A DNA stretch of 64,000 nucleotides from a virus (taxonomy: Duplodnaviria > Caudoviricetes), in IMG/VR virus record IMGVR_UViG_3300014205_000015, positions 13,731 through 77,730 of that record, one strand, 5' to 3'. The notes under the pieces were generated by a model. The model was not told where the DNA came from, ran no database searches, and was given only the letters and a program-made list of their open reading frames with translations. Made by a program: the position numbers and the translations under genes. Below, piece by piece: positions 1-9,964 of the stretch (positions are counted from its first letter, which is position 1; each line of letters begins with the position of its first letter).

Positions 1-22
1 TGTTAGTGTTATCGCTAAAAGT

Positions 23-343
23 CTACTTCTCTGAGTCTCTCCTAATGCGCTGCTTAGGACGGTAATCCCTCTTGGGTTTCAACTTAATCTCTGGCAGTCG
101 CGCAGCTCCCTCATGCGCGTTGTGCTCACTGAAGTAGCTCTTTAGCGCAATTCGAATCATCCAGTCTCCATCAACGAAGTAGTAGGTGTTTCCTACACAC
201 AGAACAGGATGTCCGAAGTGCAGGGATCTCGTAGTCGTGAATTTGCGCCATGAGCCTGCATATCTGCTTGGATTTCGCTGATAAGTAAGCTTCTCGTGCT
301 TGCAGACGTAGCATCGCAGTCCTGGCTTGATTGAGTATGTCAT
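23..343 (-). CDS. hypothetical phage protein (CxxC near N-terminus)
   Basis: ORF 23..379; start moved to ATG 343 (MTYSIK) because of the GAAAGGGA RBS upstream. Confidence 0.6.
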   Translation of the reverse strand: MTYSIKPGLRCYVCKHEKLTYQRNPSRYAGSWRKFTTTRSLHFGHPVLCVGNTYYFVDGDWMIRIALKSYFSEHNAHEGAARLPEIKLKPKRDYRPKQRIRRDSEK

Positions 344-992
344 GTCTGTCCCTTTCTGCATTTCAGCGCCAAAACACACAGGACTGACTGGCGCTAAATA
401 CCGGAGTGTACTGGATACTACTGATGTACTAACTAAAGCCTCGAAGACCCGGAACCGTACTAAAGTCTGGGCGCGATGACCCTATGCACAGGCACCCTAC
501 TGTTTTTCACCGAAACACTGGACCTCACGGTGCATATACGGGCATTATTCACGGGCCGTAGTGGGCATCCCCAGGCTGAGTTGCACAGCCGCTACGTCTA
601 TTCATAGCAGGTTTGTCTGCTACCGCTTGGGCGCGACCCCAGCAGCCGTTTTGGGCGTCTTGGGATGAACCGATAACACGGACAGAGCCCCACATACCGT
701 TTATGCTGTTTCGGCGGCAGACCTAAGCCGAGCCTCGCGCACGGTCGCGATATTCTTTGGGACGGGCTGAGAACTGCCAGCAATGTGCGGCTGAAGCCCT
801 GAAACACAGAAAGCCAAGATCTTGGGAGATCCTGGCTTCTGCGTGAGATACGGCTGCCTGACGAGCGAACCGGTAATAAGTTTAATACGATTCCGACTGT
901 CAGGCAACTGATACTTCTCAAGGCATCAGCCATTTTCTTGTAATCCACTAGGGGGCTTAGCCGGAGCCAAACCCCCATCGGGATTGCAAGAG
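344..992 (-). ncRNA. candidate large structured ncRNA (~600-650 nt), family unknown
   Basis: Many long stems on the minus strand with G-U pairs, e.g. GGGGGUUUGGC/GCUAAGCCCCC, GCUGAUGC/GUAUCAGU, UGCCUGAC/GUCAGGCA and a ~19-bp hairpin around 812-852; sigma70-like promoter directly upstream; overlapping ORFs look spurious. Confidence 0.6.
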
Positions 993-998
993 AGTTCA

Positions 999-1027
999 AA
1001 TATGACAGATTCTCGACCACAATGCAA
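999..1027 (-). promoter_or_regulatory. sigma70-like promoter (TTGCAT-17 nt-CATATT, extended TG)
   Basis: Spacing exactly 17 nt; predicted start near 992, just before the first stem of the structured region. Confidence 0.5.
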
Positions 1028-1036
1028 TACTTTAAA

Positions 1037-1270
1037 TCAGGGCGGGCAATTTTCTTCCAGGTTGCCGTCAAGCTCTTTCATTAGCAGTGCAGTCGCAGCC
1101 TTCATCAACCGCGTATCCTGCGATTTACAATGCTGGCAGAGCACCCACGGCGTTACGTTGTCCATGTGTAGCGATTCGCTGCCACAATCCCAGCATTTAC
1201 GCCAATGGGCTCTGGGGGCGCCTCTCAGTATTTGGATAGAGCTGGGGTTGGCGTAGTCTGGCTGTATCAC
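1037..1270 (-). CDS. small zinc-ribbon protein (CxxC...CxxC)
   Basis: CWDC and CQHC motifs; GTGA overlap with the csrA stop. Confidence 0.65.
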   Translation of the reverse strand: MIQPDYANPSSIQILRGAPRAHWRKCWDCGSESLHMDNVTPWVLCQHCKSQDTRLMKAATALLMKELDGNLEENCPP

Positions 1271-1452
1271 TTTGTTTGTTCCTTTAACTTGTCCCTCTGT
1301 ATCACGTCGTAGATTTCCTGACGGAAGACTGGGACTTCCTTAGGAGCCGTAATGCCGATTCTGATTTTGTCGCTGTCTACGCGGACGATAGTAACCTCAA
1401 TATCGTCGCCAATCATGAATTTCTCACCCTCTTTGCGGCTAAAGATTAACAT
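1267..1452 (-). CDS. csrA: carbon storage regulator CsrA/RsmA-like RNA-binding protein
   Basis: MLIFSRKEGEKFMIGDDIEVTIVRVDSDKIRIGITAPKEVPVFRQEI is a canonical CsrA sequence; AAGGAGGA RBS before ATG 1452. Confidence 0.93.
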   Translation of the reverse strand: MLIFSRKEGEKFMIGDDIEVTIVRVDSDKIRIGITAPKEVPVFRQEIYDVIQRDKLKEQTK

Positions 1453-1528
1453 AGCCCGTATCCTCCTTGTAAATGTAAAAACCAAACACTCGATGTTTTC
1501 TACCAATTTCCCGCAGTCGGGAACAAGG

Positions 1529-1813
1529 TCAGTTAACTGTTGCTGCTGATTTCAGCGTTCTGACATAGCCTAATCGTCGTAGCGCATCGACCGATAAATC
1601 ATCTGGCACTGTTTCGTAGTCGCGAATAAGCTCGCCGGTCTCGGCATCAACAATGCGAATAGTACGATACAAGCCTTGATGCTGACCAATGCCGTAACGA
1701 CCGCCCCATTGACCGCGAACCCGAATACTTGCGTCACGTTTTCCTTGCCGGCTAGAGAAAAATGAGTCGTGCTCGCAAACCATGTAGTCCAAATTTCCAA
1801 TTGTCACAAACAT
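1529..1813 (-). CDS. hypothetical protein
   Basis: 94-aa ORF in the co-oriented early operon. Confidence 0.6.
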   Translation of the reverse strand: MFVTIGNLDYMVCEHDSFFSSRQGKRDASIRVRGQWGGRYGIGQHQGLYRTIRIVDAETGELIRDYETVPDDLSVDALRRLGYVRTLKSAATVN

Positions 1814-1843
1814 AACTAAGCTCCAAAAAGCGTTGAGAAAGTT

Positions 1844-2134
1844 TCACTTGTCACAATAGCCAGCCCTGAAGTCACTCCGGACTGGAGGTAGGTTGTACGT
1901 CTTCACTGCTGCCAGGAACCTGGAACGGGTCGCCCGGCGCACAGTGACGCACCAGTAGCCCGTTCCCATGCGCTCAGGATGGTTCATCACAGTGGCCGCA
2001 GAGATACCCAGGATGTTACAAAACTCGATTAGCGCATCAGATTCCGTTTCCTCCTGAATAGCCTTGGTTACGTTGGTCACAAGCCCTCCTGGCAGCTCTC
2101 GGTGCGCTGATACTAGGTAGCGGGTGAGTTTCAT
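1844..2134 (-). CDS. hypothetical protein
   Basis: 96-aa ORF with GGAG RBS. Confidence 0.65.
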   Translation of the reverse strand: MKLTRYLVSAHRELPGGLVTNVTKAIQEETESDALIEFCNILGISAATVMNHPERMGTGYWCVTVRRATRSRFLAAVKTYNLPPVRSDFRAGYCDK

Positions 2135-2280
2135 GGTGCGATTCTCCAGGAGAGGTTATGGAAAGCCTACTATCGGTTGATTCTAGCACTGGGGGTTAAG
2201 CCGCGCGCACAGTGTCCCGGGGAGGTGCCCCGCCACAGCCGACCAACGAGGTAGCGGGCAGGGCACCTATCCCGGCTCGC

Positions 2281-2613
2281 TTAGTCCTGCGTGTCTTCTG
2301 CTTGCATCATCGCCAGTTCTTTCAGCTTCGGCAGTCCGCTTAAGAGATCGTCGACAATGGTAGCGCGACAGGAGTTTACTAGGTCTTTGGTTGGTTTTGG
2401 TGCCTTGTACCCGTCAGTAATGCCGACAGATGTAGCGTATGCCAGCAAGACGGCTTTAATGTCTTCGCCAAGCCACTCGCGCCCACCTGCTATCTTGGCT
2501 CGCCATGTATCCTTTAGCGCATGTGTTATCACGGAATGAACGTGGGTGATGAAATCTTCCGCTTTGCGCTGAGCTAATTTGTCGATTGTTTCCGACAAGC
2601 TTCTTTCGTTCAT
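2281..2613 (-). CDS. hypothetical protein
   Basis: 110-aa ORF preceded by the TACCCGGAGG start motif. Confidence 0.75.
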   Translation of the reverse strand: MNERSLSETIDKLAQRKAEDFITHVHSVITHALKDTWRAKIAGGREWLGEDIKAVLLAYATSVGITDGYKAPKPTKDLVNSCRATIVDDLLSGLPKLKELAMMQAEDTQD

Positions 2614-2724
2614 GGGATTACCTCCGGGTAGGGTGTATGCGTTGATTGGCTCGCCAGCCTTCGCCTAAAGTGAAGCGAGGAACGCGGCGTGGCCGAATGC
2701 CTCGCCGCGTGTCCTCGGCTCACG

Positions 2725-3684
2725 TTAGATATGGCAATCGAGAAGCGTAATCCACTGCGTAGGCTGAAGCGAAGCAACCATCTCGTTAAACTTCTCGTCC
2801 CACTGGTCGTCCTCGTTGCTGACGCAAGCCCACCAGCCCATTTCGCCTTGCTCGTACCATTTCCCGTCTTTGACGACAGCAAAGGCTGACAGCATCGGAG
2901 CGGAGTTAATCCAGTCGTCGAGGGTCTGTTCTCCGATTTCTGGTATCTCAAAGTTGTGGGAGTGAGCATCTGCCACGTTAGCATAGCCCGCATCGCGAAG
3001 CCACTGGAAGTATTCGCTACCACGCGGGCGGTCGCTGGCTGGAATCTCCATCCACTTGGCGTGTACCTCTTTGTGTAGCTGGCAGGCAGCACCAAAGTCC
3101 TCGCGTGACATTCCACACTTAGCGATACATTCATCAACCCAATTGGCTCGCCCTCGCTGGGCTTCCACCTTCATCTTGTCCCAGTCAATATCAGCAACAC
3201 ACGCTGAGTCAAAGCCCTCTGGTATCGTTTTCTCGTTCTTCCACTCCCAGCTTGGTTCGGTCGCCACGGCGGACGCTACACCGGATTTGACTTGAAGTCT
3301 CGCTCGATAGCGACCACCGACGCGCCAGTAATCCCATTTCTTGTTGGGATTAGTGCGGGTTATCACTTCCAGGACATTGCCATCGGCACCGACGCGCACA
3401 TAGCCGTATTTGTGCTCTCCCTCTTTGTCGGGATCGGCTGGAGAAACTACAGGCTCCAGTCCATACCAGCCATTAATCCATTCCAAGAAGCCTTCAGCCG
3501 GTTCGGTTGCATTCTCCGTGTACTGGGCATACTCCGCTTTAGCTTCCTCAGTGCGGTCGATTGACTGCACGTACTGGTCGTCGGTGCCAGTGCATTCAAA
3601 CTCATGGTATGGCTGCATGAGTTTGGTTAGGATTTCATCGGTGGGTTCGCTGTCAGTTACCACCATCACAGAAAAATGTGACAT
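2725..3684 (-). CDS. conserved-type hypothetical phage protein (MSHFSVMVV...NPNKKWDYWRVGGRY...LLDCHI)
   Basis: Long ORF; start moved to ATG 3684 by the TACCCGGAGG motif. Confidence 0.85.
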   Translation of the reverse strand: MSHFSVMVVTDSEPTDEILTKLMQPYHEFECTGTDDQYVQSIDRTEEAKAEYAQYTENATEPAEGFLEWINGWYGLEPVVSPADPDKEGEHKYGYVRVGADGNVLEVITRTNPNKKWDYWRVGGRYRARLQVKSGVASAVATEPSWEWKNEKTIPEGFDSACVADIDWDKMKVEAQRGRANWVDECIAKCGMSREDFGAACQLHKEVHAKWMEIPASDRPRGSEYFQWLRDAGYANVADAHSHNFEIPEIGEQTLDDWINSAPMLSAFAVVKDGKWYEQGEMGWWACVSNEDDQWDEKFNEMVASLQPTQWITLLDCHI

Positions 3685-3722
3685 TATTCTTTCCTCCGGG
3701 TAGGGTTTCAACGGGTTTAGCT

Positions 3723-3779
3723 GCCTCGTCAGGTCATCCCCACTACGGGATAACTACGCCCACAAGTGAGCGTTTCGGC
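3723..3779 (-). ncRNA. type II hammerhead ribozyme
   Basis: GCC-GAAA-stem III (6 bp)-GUA-stem I (8 bp)-CUGACGA-GGC; complete catalytic core; intergenic. Confidence 0.9.
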
Positions 3780-3780
3780 T

Positions 3781-4098
3781 TCAACCAAACATTGCCGAGA
3801 CACTAGCGACCACGGCGCCACCAGTAATCACCAGCCAAATCACACAGGTTTCGCCGTCAATCTTATGCGGCCAGGGCACGTTGCACTTGAGGCTATTGTG
3901 TACCTCGATGGCATTCGCATTGACCACCTCGGTCGCTGACCGATGGCGGGTAAGCAGGTCGACCGCTTCGTCAGCATGGCAGCCGAATAGGTCAATCATG
4001 GCGCTGACGCAATCGGCTTGGTCTGTCTTTGCCCGCTGCCAATCATGGCAAATTGCTTGCAATTCCGCAAAATCTTCGTCGCTAATGTGTAGTCTCAT
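3781..4098 (-). CDS. hypothetical protein
   Basis: 105-aa ORF in operon. Confidence 0.65.
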   Translation of the reverse strand: MRLHISDEDFAELQAICHDWQRAKTDQADCVSAMIDLFGCHADEAVDLLTRHRSATEVVNANAIEVHNSLKCNVPWPHKIDGETCVIWLVITGGAVVASVSAMFG

Positions 4099-4124
4099 GA
4101 TGTGTGGAGCCTTTGAGTAATTTG

Positions 4125-4520
4125 CTAAAGCGTACCTAATTTCGAGAGTAATTCTGCCACATGCGCGCGGGTGTCTGCCACGACATATTCATCGTGTAGT
4201 AGTAGGTTATCTTCGTCGCACTGGCCAGCGATATCCTGGTAGTCGATTTTAATTGCAGCAGGGAGCAGTTTCAGCAGTCCCACTAGCAGATTGCGCCCTT
4301 GTTCCACCGCCGTGTATCCTCCTGGTTGCACTTTACCATCGTGGCGCGGGTCGATGTTCCACCGCAATTGGCGCAATCCAGCTTCGACGGTGCAAAGCAC
4401 ATCGAGAACATGCGTTGTAGCCACTTCCTTGGTGGCTCGTGTTAGTGCCTGGACGTATTCAGCCTCAGACGCTTCAAGTGGTCTTAACTCTTCCATAGCT
4501 TCTCTCCGGTTAATTGACAA
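4125..4520 (-). CDS. hypothetical protein
   Basis: 131-aa ORF in operon. Confidence 0.65.
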   Translation of the reverse strand: MSINRREAMEELRPLEASEAEYVQALTRATKEVATTHVLDVLCTVEAGLRQLRWNIDPRHDGKVQPGGYTAVEQGRNLLVGLLKLLPAAIKIDYQDIAGQCDEDNLLLHDEYVVADTRAHVAELLSKLGTL

Positions 4521-4782
4521 ACAAAGTCACGACACCAGCCGCCGCAGCAGCACTAATCACGCACAGCACAGCCCAGCCCGCGAATTGCATAATCTCGTGT
4601 AAGACGCCGAATTCCCGTAGTTGCCCATCGTATTCTTGCTCGATTTCCAGGTGGCATCGCTGGCAAATACGAATACGCCCCCAGTAGTACGCGCCTGCTG
4701 CGCCTAATGGCTCTCCGCATCGACAGCATTGTTCATGTGGAGATGGGGTGTAAGACTCACTTTGCCACTTTGGATTGTCCAT
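4510..4782 (-). CDS. small protein with CxxC motifs and a C-terminal membrane anchor
   Basis: CCRC...CQRC followed by a hydrophobic C-terminus. Confidence 0.6.
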   Translation of the reverse strand: MDNPKWQSESYTPSPHEQCCRCGEPLGAAGAYYWGRIRICQRCHLEIEQEYDGQLREFGVLHEIMQFAGWAVLCVISAAAAAGVVTLFVN

Positions 4783-4796
4783 TGGTTTGCTCCAGG

Positions 4797-5021
4797 CTAT
4801 AGCTCGATGTCTAGGACATTGCGAAACGTATCCTTAACAGCCTCGATGAAGTCGGCAGCCGAATTAGCGGCTACTGATTCTTCTGGTTCATACGCGCCGT
4901 CTTCGTTGTACGAAAGGCGCTCGGCAATTTCCGTCAGCGCCTTTGCGAGCGTCAATAGTGACTTTCCTTGTATGTGATGCTCAGCGTCGACGATTTGATT
5001 GAATTCCATAATCTTGTCCAT
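4797..5021 (-). CDS. hypothetical protein
   Basis: 74-aa ORF with AAGGGAG RBS. Confidence 0.65.
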   Translation of the reverse strand: MDKIMEFNQIVDAEHHIQGKSLLTLAKALTEIAERLSYNEDGAYEPEESVAANSAADFIEAVKDTFRNVLDIEL

Positions 5022-5031
5022 TGGTTTTCTC

Positions 5032-5095
5032 CCTTGGCTTGTGGCTGGTCAGCGAAGTGCTGAGCCGCATTAGCGCCCGAAGGCGTCACTCTGCG
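5032..5095 (-). ncRNA. twister ribozyme, P5-type permutation
   Basis: CGCA-GAGUG-P1 (CGCC UUCG GGCG)-CUAA-UGCG-GC-P3 (UCAGC/GCUGA)-CCAG-CCACAAGC-CAAGG; the T1 pseudoknot shows compensatory UG/CA; P4 is imperfect. Confidence 0.75.
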
Positions 5096-5457
5096 TTGTT
5101 CACTTTGGCTTTGGCGATGGCGGCGCGGGTGGCTTTGATTTCGTTGGCGTAAACCGTCAGTAGTAGAGAGTCGTTATCAAACATCGAGTCGATCGACTCC
5201 AGCGCGGCCAGCAGTTCCGCCAGACGATCTTCGAGCATCATGCAGCGCTCAGCGTAGGCTGCCTCAGTGCGGGTGGAGAAACCGCCTAATTCATCTTCAA
5301 GGCCAGCGACAAACCATCGCTTTCCAGGGCAGTCGATGTGGTTATTGTGGACACAACCCACAGCGCCGTTATCGTAGCGGTTATTTGTGTACCATCCGCC
5401 ATGTCTCCATCGCTCTGGAAAGCTTGGCTGCCAGCGGCGCGTTTGTGTCGTGTTCAT
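5086..5457 (-). CDS. hypothetical phage protein
   Basis: 123-aa ORF preceded by the TACCCAGAGG motif. Confidence 0.75.
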   Translation of the reverse strand: MNTTQTRRWQPSFPERWRHGGWYTNNRYDNGAVGCVHNNHIDCPGKRWFVAGLEDELGGFSTRTEAAYAERCMMLEDRLAELLAALESIDSMFDNDSLLLTVYANEIKATRAAIAKAKVNNAE

Positions 5458-5544
5458 TATGTTTCCTCTGGGTAAAAAGTGGTAAGCCTGCGACGTTACA
5501 GGGGCTCGGCTACCGCTGGGGGTAGCTCCGCCGCCGAAACGTCA

Positions 5545-6093
5545 CTAGATAGGGTAGATAGAGCTGAAACTGACCGGCTGACCGTCACGCTCAAGCTGCT
5601 CACATTTGGCGATAATTTGCTTGGCGTGTGCTTTGTTTTCCTCTGTGTCATACAGCGCCGAGTGGCTATAGTGCTCGAATTGAATACCCCGCCAGTACAC
5701 GTAGCCGTCGTATTCGATTCGTAGTCGCTCGTCGATGCCGTAGAGTGGTTCGCCGCGGTCCTCTACTAGCGGTGGATTGTCGCGTTCCGTCTGGGCAATT
5801 CGGAAGTGTACGCCAGCTACGCCATGCGTACTCGATTCTGCGCCATTGGTGATATCGCCGCAGCAGAGCTCCACGCAATCGTCACAGAGTCCGTATCCAG
5901 GCTCCTGGTTCCACCAGTCGCGCCCCTGGAGCGATTCGCCACAGCAAGTGCAGGACAGCCACTTAATTGGCTTCTTGCGCTCGTTGGCGTAGTCGTCTAC
6001 TCTCGCTGCGCTGGCTTGCTTGTCTAGCGATTCCAGCCATGCGTTAGCTTGTTCTGTCGTCGTTATGGCGATTGTCTCGATTCCGTGTCTCAT
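5545..6093 (-). CDS. hypothetical protein with CxCC/CxxC zinc motifs
   Basis: 182-aa ORF preceded by TACCCGGAGA. Confidence 0.75.
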   Translation of the reverse strand: MRHGIETIAITTTEQANAWLESLDKQASAARVDDYANERKKPIKWLSCTCCGESLQGRDWWNQEPGYGLCDDCVELCCGDITNGAESSTHGVAGVHFRIAQTERDNPPLVEDRGEPLYGIDERLRIEYDGYVYWRGIQFEHYSHSALYDTEENKAHAKQIIAKCEQLERDGQPVSFSSIYPI

Positions 6094-6187
6094 GGTTTTG
6101 CTCTCCGGGTAGAGGGGTTTGGGGTAATTCCTGACGTTGCAGGGGTCACAGGGCTAGCAGGTGGGCTAGCCCAGGTCCCGCGAAACG

Positions 6188-6427
6188 TCAGAATGCGAGT
6201 ATGCGAGCTTTAATGTCATCTAATGCTTTAGCAAGTGCCGGGCATTCGTCGCTATACTTGTCGACACGAGCAAGCATAGCACAAAAGAGTAGGGCATCAG
6301 TCTTTCGCATACCTGTCGACCTAAGCGCGGCAACTACTCTATTGTTTGCCGCACGCATCGCCGTAGCTGATTCAGCGAAGTAACCCACTCGGTTACATTG
6401 CTCTGCGTACGTTGGGCATTGTGTCAT
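6188..6427 (-). CDS. hypothetical protein, first gene of the leftward early operon
   Basis: Start moved to ATG 6427 (MTQCPTY) by the TACCCGGAGG motif. Confidence 0.7.
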   Translation of the reverse strand: MTQCPTYAEQCNRVGYFAESATAMRAANNRVVAALRSTGMRKTDALLFCAMLARVDKYSDECPALAKALDDIKARILAF

Positions 6428-6685
6428 GATTCCCTCCGGGTAAGGAAAAAGGAGCCCCCAGCGCGACAGGGCTACACAAGACCAGCCTATGAAGTCGGCT
6501 AGAATTGATTGTCGCGAGGGGGCATAGTTGTTTGAGTCCTGTGTAGCTATCGTCATTGTACGCTTCGGGGCCCATAGTGTCTATGAGGAAAGTACAATAA
6601 TTCTTGCATATTGGGAAAATACATCCAGAATATTTCTAGTTAGACACTTAGTATTGCGGGTCCATGCTAATAGCAGGCTTGGATT

Positions 6686-6703
6686 TGTCCACAATTGTGG
6701 ACA
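6686..6703. repeat. palindrome TGTCCACAATTGTGGACA, copy 1 of 7
   Basis: Other copies at 8081, 8453, 8499, 24383, 41601 and 53370. Confidence 0.9.
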
Positions 6704-6891
6704 TTGCCAGTCCCCACCCGCCAGCGGGGGATTTTGGCTTCTTATTGAGATTGGAGCGGGTTTCGGGCATACTGAGGGCTAATCAGACGCACCAGAATGC
6801 CCCAGAATCGACGCGGAGCACTTCGCGTGACCCAGAACACCTGCCTTTTTCTCGTGCGTTGTACGCTCAGTCTCAATAAGGAATAGCAGCA

Positions 6892-7215
6892 ATGGTCCAC
6901 CGTCCCAACCCAGTTCAGTCTATCCAACAGCAGCCGCAACAGTTCGGACAACAGCGCTATCAACCGCTCCAAATGGGAGCCGCCCAGCAGCCGCTCGCCG
7001 ACCCAGCCGCAGCGATTCAAGGGCAGGTACAAGAACTGGCGTTAGAGATTTACGCTAGGCTGGTTGCCGGTCGCCACCTGGATCCCAGCTACACAACGGC
7101 GCTCGACCAGTCGCATTTGCGCCAGTTAGCCAAGGACAGCCAAGCCGCAGCCACCGCATACTTCAGCCAGCTAGGTGTACAATTCGAGGACCACCCCAAC
7201 CAACCAGGGAGCTAA
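6892..7215 (+). CDS. Gln-rich hypothetical protein
   Basis: 107-aa ORF with AAGGA RBS; first rightward gene. Confidence 0.7.
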   Translation: MVHRPNPVQSIQQQPQQFGQQRYQPLQMGAAQQPLADPAAAIQGQVQELALEIYARLVAGRHLDPSYTTALDQSHLRQLAKDSQAAATAYFSQLGVQFEDHPNQPGS

Positions 7216-9890: not shown

Positions 9891-9964
9891 GGAGTCGGTA
9901 GCTCAGGGGTAGAGCAGCGGGGCATGTAATCCGCGGTTGATGGTTCGAATCCGTCCCGATTCCA
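9891..9964 (+). tRNA. atypical tRNA (Thr-UGU-like, 8-nt anticodon loop)
   Basis: GGAGTCGG/CCGATTCC acceptor, GCTC/GAGC D arm, GCGGG/TCCGC anticodon stem with loop GCATGTAA, GATGG-TTCGAAT-CCGTC T arm. Confidence 0.75.

Follow-up and report, generated by a model that had tools for sequence, protein, structure and literature searches.

Bacterial and phage RNAs of great size and complexity are rare, being represented by rRNA, RNase P, group I and II introns, OLE, GOLLD, ROOL and raiA, and each of the known large ornate RNAs is either biochemically remarkable or still puzzling. ROOL (RF03087), which averages 581 nt, is found in phages and prophages, often near tRNA genes (PMC5737381), and its structure has been described by cryo-EM (10.1101/2024.12.08.627333); one studied example of GOLLD lies downstream of tRNA-Met (10.1101/2024.12.08.627333). 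These two large, ornate, phage-borne RNAs encoded near tRNA genes are the nearest in kind to the RNA described below.

Our comparative sequence analysis establishes that positions ~992–352 on the minus strand of a 64,000-nt stretch of phage DNA (hereafter the window) specify a large structured non-coding RNA with several domains, which represents a new family. The predicted RNA is about 580–640 nt long, and compensatory changes in its base pairs have preserved it in a small set of related uncultured phages. The window comprises bases 13731–77730 of an IMG/VR virus record that is 77.7 kb long and bears direct terminal repeats; its large terminase is only 22–26% identical to those of cultured proteobacterial phages. 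A resemblance to GOLLD and ROOL had been proposed from the sequence alone; it stands as an analogy and does not extend to homology, since neither Rfam model is matched. With ROOL the new RNA shares a similar size, many multi-stem junctions and a phage context, whereas RF03087 is unmatched at E ≤ 10 and the conserved sequences differ; moreover, the new RNA is known only from a narrow clade of uncultured, probably proteobacterial phages, in which it occupies a promoter-adjacent place in an early operon. A tRNA-Met gene adjoins it in L020 and L021 only (in L020 at 2928–2998, ~170 nt upstream), and the sole tRNA gene of the window lies 9 kb from the RNA. Like GOLLD (RF01998), it is large, ornate, phage-associated and modular, with one part well conserved and the other less so; however, RF01998 is unmatched, GOLLD is larger (>800 nt), and the conserved part of GOLLD is its 3′ end whereas the most widely shared module of the new RNA is its 5′ domain.

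Comparison with Rfam 15 by Infernal gave no family at the gathering score for the RNA region of the window, none at E ≤ 10 for positions 200–1300, and no match to the RNA at E ≤ 10 in eight relatives; ROOL, GOLLD, RNase P, tmRNA and the introns are among the models left unmatched. The view that the RNA is neither RNase P RNA, tmRNA nor a group I/II intron is therefore upheld: ARAGORN finds no tmRNA, and an intron was rejected also because the upstream neighbour varies (zinc-ribbon ORF, 43-aa ORF, Gad2, tRNA-Met). Literature searches found no description of the new RNA.

Positions ~1–7000 of the window form a minus-strand early operon of small ORFs, in which csrA (1458–1267), a 77-aa zinc-ribbon ORF (1270–1037), a gap of ~690 nt and a 106-aa ORF (343–23) follow one another. 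The gap, first noticed as gene-free in the sequence-only reading, is real and extends on the minus strand from the stop of the 77-aa ORF (1037–1270) to the ATG of the 106-aa ORF (23–343). Its neighbours are:

1267–1458, minus strand: csrA, matching Pfam CsrA at E 5.3e-24, two genes upstream of the RNA.
1037–1270, minus strand: 77-aa zinc-ribbon ORF directly upstream of the RNA, with a weak, below cut-off match to an eIF-5/eIF-2B zinc ribbon.
23–343, minus strand: 106-aa gene directly downstream of the RNA, with an ATG start and a C-terminal RPKQRIRRDSEK that is invariant in its family.

The 106-aa protein, whose invariant C-terminus RPKQRIRRDSEK is basic, has relatives in 12 clusters at 65–84% identity; it has no match in Pfam or PHROG, its AlphaFold2 model has a pLDDT of 63, and Foldseek against the PDB was empty at E ≤ 0.001. 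In L026, csrA holds the same relative position and is 42% identical to that of the window, and the 43-aa ORF occupying the slot of the 77-aa ORF is not homologous to it.

Homologues of the RNA were obtained from metagenome contigs carrying relatives of the 106-aa protein, together with one locus (L029) found by RNA pattern, and yielded eight alignable copies in three clades. Clade A (the window, L020–L023 and L032) is 88–89% identical to the window over the well-aligned part, clade B (L026, L030 and L029) 71% and clade C (L027 and L034) 64%. Considering that nearly all of the eight or nine copies were reached via the same downstream gene, both the link to that gene and the apparent breadth of the family are biased by the search route. 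L029, the one genuine further copy from the metagenome pattern scan, was reached independently of the protein and again has the 106-aa gene downstream. Other searches were negative within their scope: blastn of 300–1100 against 50,697 phage records gave zero matches; IMG/VR held no close relatives of the 106-aa, 77-aa or CsrA proteins; relatives of TerL in IMG/VR marked 14 loci, and five of these records searched with the RNA gave only chance matches of 14–25 nt; RNA pattern scans of viral contigs returned nothing, or one chance match within a 2073-aa ORF; and a pattern scan of 185,579 species genomes gave six matches, all of them chance (no further similarity, no Rfam family). In the complete relative G001 a csrA-like ORF is present and an RNA homologue is absent from the first 20 kb. 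With the three modules as queries, nhmmer found a single copy in the phage genome.

On the minus strand, 344–1036 has a minimum free energy of −272.2 kcal/mol against −233.2 ± 8.8 for dinucleotide shuffles (z −4.44; 0/20 as good), which bears out the dense minus-strand folding originally noticed; the plus strand reaches −236.1 (z −3.89). RNAalifold predicted 121–146 pairs on the homologue alignment, and over the 146 pairs 94.6% of cells are paired. Changes on both sides affect 34 pairs (82 cells) against 2–12 pairs (2–20 cells) in slid controls, and 0 of 500 shuffles match this figure; the covariation that had been suggested as a check is thus strong. The cells include 124 G-U against 21 A-C combinations, many G-U pairs being invariant, and the RNAalifold energy is −242 for the minus strand and −219.5 for the reverse strand. 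Since G-U so far exceeds A-C and the reverse strand scores worse, we place the RNA on the minus strand of the window, as the earlier argument from G-U pairs had done. Together with the empty Rfam comparison and an unconserved ORF 598–1071, this covariation supports the original proposal of an ornate minus-strand non-coding RNA of ~600 nt.

The comparisons show, for the predicted structure, a fold of ~24 helices with several multi-helix junctions and long-range closing helices kept by compensatory substitutions. Its parts, given in minus-strand order where single strands are named, are:

937–990, minus strand: 5′ leader hairpin CUUGCAAUCC/GGAUUACAAG, proposed earlier, enclosing an 11-bp hairpin (976–951); from the minimum free energy fold, and lineage-specific.
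793–935, minus strand: 5′ domain, with H1, Hv, H3 and a candidate pseudoknot.
932–923/914–905, minus strand: H1, proposed earlier as GCUGAUGC/GUAUCAGU.
904–850, minus strand: Hv, a variable long hairpin, proposed earlier as UGCCUGAC/GUCAGGCA.
844–804, minus strand: H3, the ~19-bp hairpin proposed earlier.
465–807, minus strand: conserved multi-junction core, H4–H21, from alignments, RNAalifold and pair counts.
719–775, minus strand: H7 (775–761/734–719), enclosing the H8 hairpin (750–735) and an invariant AAGAAUAUCG junction.
511–713, minus strand: long-range H9 (713–708/516–511) and H10–H12 (706–687/556–532), which close the central domain.
685–643, minus strand: H13/H14, well supported.
635–604, minus strand: peripheral hairpins H15/H16, entirely missing from clade C.
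623–604, minus strand: H16, proposed earlier as UAGCAG/CUGCUA; both sides changed in 4/7 pairs.
596–557, minus strand: three-way junction H17–H19, the CGUAG/CUACG junction proposed earlier; H17 is 596–592/561–557.
590–574, minus strand: H18, an invariant hairpin whose loop UGCA[A/G]CU includes the palindrome UGCA.
573–562, minus strand: H19, reading GGG/CCC, GGA/UCC and GAA/UUC in the three clades.
522–531, minus strand: H20, an invariant ACC-GUGA-GGU hairpin with a GNRA tetraloop, within invariant AUGCACCGUGAGGUC.
474–499, minus strand: H21, the core end, with an invariant AUAGGGAC loop.
352–465, minus strand: optional 3′ extension, ending with H23, next to which stands the ribosome-binding site AAGGGA for the following gene; a U run is absent.
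398–362, minus strand: H23, an invariant hairpin proposed earlier as AGCGCCA/UGGCGCU.

Seven of the nine helices of the sequence-only reading agree with the comparative model, and two, GGGCU/AGCCC and AUGCAC/GUGCAU, are unsupported by the relatives. In the first of these, AGCC has its covarying partner in the GGCU of H7 downstream, and the partner of GGGC is the H1 loop or a 3′ GCCC; in the second, AUGC pairs with an upstream GCAU (H10).

Within the 5′ domain (26 pairs, 98.1% paired), seven pairs changed on both sides against 0–3 in slid controls. Hv differs in sequence in every lineage, and its shape of a long stem with a large loop is kept. The candidate pseudoknot would join the H1 loop GCCUU (924–920) to AGGGC (800–796), just after H3; it is pairable in all eight sequences, including L028 (97.5% paired), and competes with H4, a helix that is in part disrupted in clade C. 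Covariation support is slight for the pseudoknot, for H4 and for the 3′ extension (one covarying pair). In the core, H9 is 100% paired with both sides changed in 3/6 pairs, and the H10 pair 297/467 is AU, GC and UA across the three clades, so that the long-range H9 and H10 covary across all of them. Both sides changed in two pairs of H7, one of H8, two of H17 and three of H19; H18 never varies, nor does H20, and for H20 the comparison therefore speaks neither for nor against pairing. H21 has two both-side-changed pairs and is 94.6% paired, its pairing being weaker in the window itself. We count H1, H3, H7/H8, H9, H10–H12, H13/H14, H16, the H17–H19 junction and H21 as well supported.

The variants show that the RNA is built from exchangeable modules, namely the 5′ domain, the core and the 3′ extension. 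L028 carries the 5′ domain alone (nhmmer E 2.4e-22), followed by unrelated 3′ sequence; a 43-column deletion removes H15/H16 from L027 and L034; and the 3′ extension is present in the window, L020–L023, L026, L029 and L030 and absent from L032, L027 and L034. Borders of the sequence blocks coincide with the recombination joints between modules. We note that L033 has at 1–520, upstream of its 106-aa-gene homologue, an unrelated 520-nt stretch that folds strongly (z −4.9); the slot before the 106-aa gene may hold alternative structured RNAs.

A promoter of its own had also been claimed for the RNA, and in the window the only candidate is the following:

999–1027, minus strand: putative weak promoter, TTGCAT (1027–1022), a 17-nt spacer and CATATT (1004–999); by eye, 7/12.

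The claim is convincing in relatives only: immediately upstream of the RNA, L020 and L029 have a sigma-70-like TTGACA-16-TACTAT (10/12) and L026 has TTGACA-17-GATATT with TG (10/12), whereas the weak window site went uncalled in a consensus scan of the minus strand, which called neither promoter nor terminator at the RNA ends. The putative window promoter would start transcription near 992–990, and in the alignment L028 has TTGCGG-17-CATAGT at the equivalent position. A hairpin comes after the predicted start in each of the lineages: that of L028 is analogous to 937–990, and L020, L026 and L029 have there a different, short, GAAA-capped hairpin. In clade C (L027 and L034) a perfect TATAAT, seen by eye and uncalled by the scan, stands 7 nt before the conserved ACGGCUG, and a terminator-like hairpin with a U6 run ends the core, upstream of the gene. 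In clades A and B no terminator was seen, and the RNA continues via the 3′ extension up to the ribosome-binding site of the next ORF. Consensus scans called no locus with promoter and terminator together. H3 and its U-rich tail were also considered as a terminator and rejected, since the bases of the tail are paired, with covariation, to the 5′ strand.

As to function, we hold with moderate confidence that, during early infection, the RNA works by itself as a folded particle. This reading follows from its size, an architecture rich in junctions, invariant motifs of tertiary type, the exchange of its modules, its independence of any one downstream ORF and the promoter-plus-terminator layout of clade C. 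Its complexity is also of the kind usual in ornate RNAs: one GNRA hairpin is invariant, three-way junctions occur, and some peripheral hairpins are specific to a clade. Moreover, inserted genes, the mixed RNA of L028 and the varying upstream neighbours indicate that it is a module of its own and does not serve as leader to one particular gene. An additional small gene sits between the RNA and the 106-aa gene in L020–L023 and L032, and the first ORF downstream is, by lineage, the 106-aa gene, a Lar-like 90-aa gene or a 73-aa gene; upstream lie csrA and a small ORF (window, L026), Gad2 (L027) or tRNA-Met (L020). Against the folded-particle reading, the window combines a weak promoter with the absence of a terminator, and at larger distances the core is conserved no better than the neighbouring gene (64–71% against 71–73%).

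We suggest that an early promoter just upstream would transcribe the RNA first, the transcript beginning with a protective 5′ hairpin, and that the folded RNA would most likely bind some macromolecule of the host or the phage in early infection, the mode supposed for other ornate phage RNAs. An intrinsic terminator in clade C would release a discrete RNA of ~450 nt; in the window phage, which lacks a terminator, the RNA would stay joined to, or be processed from, the mRNA of the 106-aa gene. The nearby csrA, Gad2 and Lar-like genes place the RNA in an anti-defence early region. The Gad2 (anti-Gabija) gene occupies 1577–2599 in L027, directly upstream of the RNA. The Lar-like gene, resembling Lar restriction alleviation by eye, is a zinc-ribbon gene of ~90 aa at 3732–4000 in L020/L021, between the RNA and the 106-aa gene, which the gene caller had stretched to 153 aa across the RNA 3′ end. 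The family adds a well-supported ornate RNA, with ~24 helices and 34 covarying pairs from only eight sequences, that has a defined place in the infection programme: promoter-proximal, within an early region devoted to anti-defence, and with csrA, Gad2, Lar-like genes and self-cleaving ribozymes as neighbours. Modular variants occur naturally (the 5′ domain by itself, the core either with the 3′ extension or lacking it, the core plus a terminator) and amount to a ready-made deletion series, and this depth, position and variation together make the role of large ornate phage RNAs more testable.

The main rival, which we consider possible if rather unlikely, is a cis-acting leader between an early promoter and the first ORFs, whether a riboswitch, a protein-binding attenuator or an antitermination element like HK022 put. 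The put RNA, of ~70 nt and two stem-loops, lies directly downstream of an early phage promoter; the likeness is one of position, the new RNA lying downstream of an early promoter and being followed in clade C by a terminator, and put, compared by description, contrasts with 450–640 nt and more than 20 helices here. Since the window has no terminator, its RNA is also the leader of the next gene. The RNA always stands directly before same-strand ORFs with a promoter-like site just upstream, the invariant H23 of clades A and B abuts the ribosome-binding site, and even L029, found by RNA pattern, is followed by the 106-aa gene. Moreover, the terminator-like hairpin of clade C includes in its 5′ arm bases from the 3′ strands of both H21 and H4, so that fold and terminator would be mutually exclusive; however, the H4 pairing behind this overlap is poorly supported in clade C, and clades A and B are without a terminator to regulate. 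The change of first downstream ORF between lineages likewise argues against a leader, as does the size (~450–580 nt, >20 helices), known riboswitches and put RNA being far smaller.

It is more doubtful that the RNA represents a new ornate phage RNA class with a biochemical activity of its own, either a ROOL/GOLLD-like multimer or a large ribozyme at the start of infection. In the multimer variant, two invariant elements would form the bridges between copies, the H18 loop with its palindromic UGCA and the GUGA tetraloop; the one hint in the sequence of a nanocage-type oligomerization is that palindrome.

We think it improbable that the RNA is a large ribozyme or RNA-processing element cutting the phage early transcript. 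Catalysis is common among large conserved RNAs that have many junctions and GNRA loops, and a type II hammerhead lies in the same operon and on the same strand (3715–3780, minus strand; 50.6 bits), while the operon of L028 has two (340–404 and 1531–1593, plus strand; 54.1 and 43.4 bits). With hammerheads between early genes in both the window and L028, self-cleaving RNAs are a habit common to this phage group. Against catalysis by the new RNA itself, its sequence in the window and in eight relatives matches no Rfam ribozyme model at E ≤ 10, no conserved cleavage-site motif was recognized, and the variation of the flanking genes argues that it is not an intron.

A DNA-level element (replication origin, packaging site or recombination hotspot), whose inverted repeats would merely mimic RNA helices, seems very improbable. 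Both strands do fold better than shuffles, and the block borders are recombination joints; however, the G-U combinations, in excess (124 against 21 A-C cells) and often invariant, would be mismatches in duplex DNA or on the other strand, covarying long-range nested helices are unexpected of protein-binding DNA repeats, and no direct repeats or iterons were noted.

Very improbable, too, is a CsrB/RsmZ-type sponge for phage or host CsrA. The likeness is that of a non-coding RNA of several hundred nucleotides genetically linked to csrA, which lies upstream in the window and in L026; but GGA, the CsrA-binding core, is depleted: the 584 nt contain 3, shuffles 9.8 ± 2.7, and every relative has 0.6–1.5 per 100 nt. 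CsrB/RsmZ sponges are defined by repeated GGA-loop hairpins, which are absent here, and L027, L020 and L029 carry the RNA without csrA directly upstream. Considering this shortage of GGA, we reject the sponge despite the upstream csrA. The low GGA content of the RNA (352–935, minus strand) and its homologues might instead reflect avoidance of the product of the upstream csrA.

Lastly, a protein-coding origin is effectively refuted, since ORF 598–1071 (157 aa, TTG start), the open frame that could suggest it, is without a homologue in a set of 5.8 billion proteins and unmatched in Pfam, and since neither it nor any smaller ORF survives in a frame open throughout the homologues, where indels of mostly 1–2 nt break the frame in every relative. 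Substitutions in the RNA fall evenly on the codon positions (e.g. 17/15/13 and 43/36/40), and the same count in the adjacent gene gives a third-position excess (20/15/48 and 33/17/56). These comparisons show that the RNA is predicted not to be translated, which answers the earlier doubt over ORF 598–1071.

Two further features of these loci may be recorded. In L029, a 174-aa ORF on the opposite strand (611–1135, plus strand), just past the 106-aa gene, resembles by eye a homing endonuclease of the HNH/AP2 type. At gathering scores, the Rfam 15 scan of the whole window returned only one hammerhead and one tRNA; the latter, at 9891–9964 on the plus strand (45 bits), is given a four-base anticodon (atgt) by ARAGORN with the amino acid unassigned, and could have an expanded anticodon loop or be misread.
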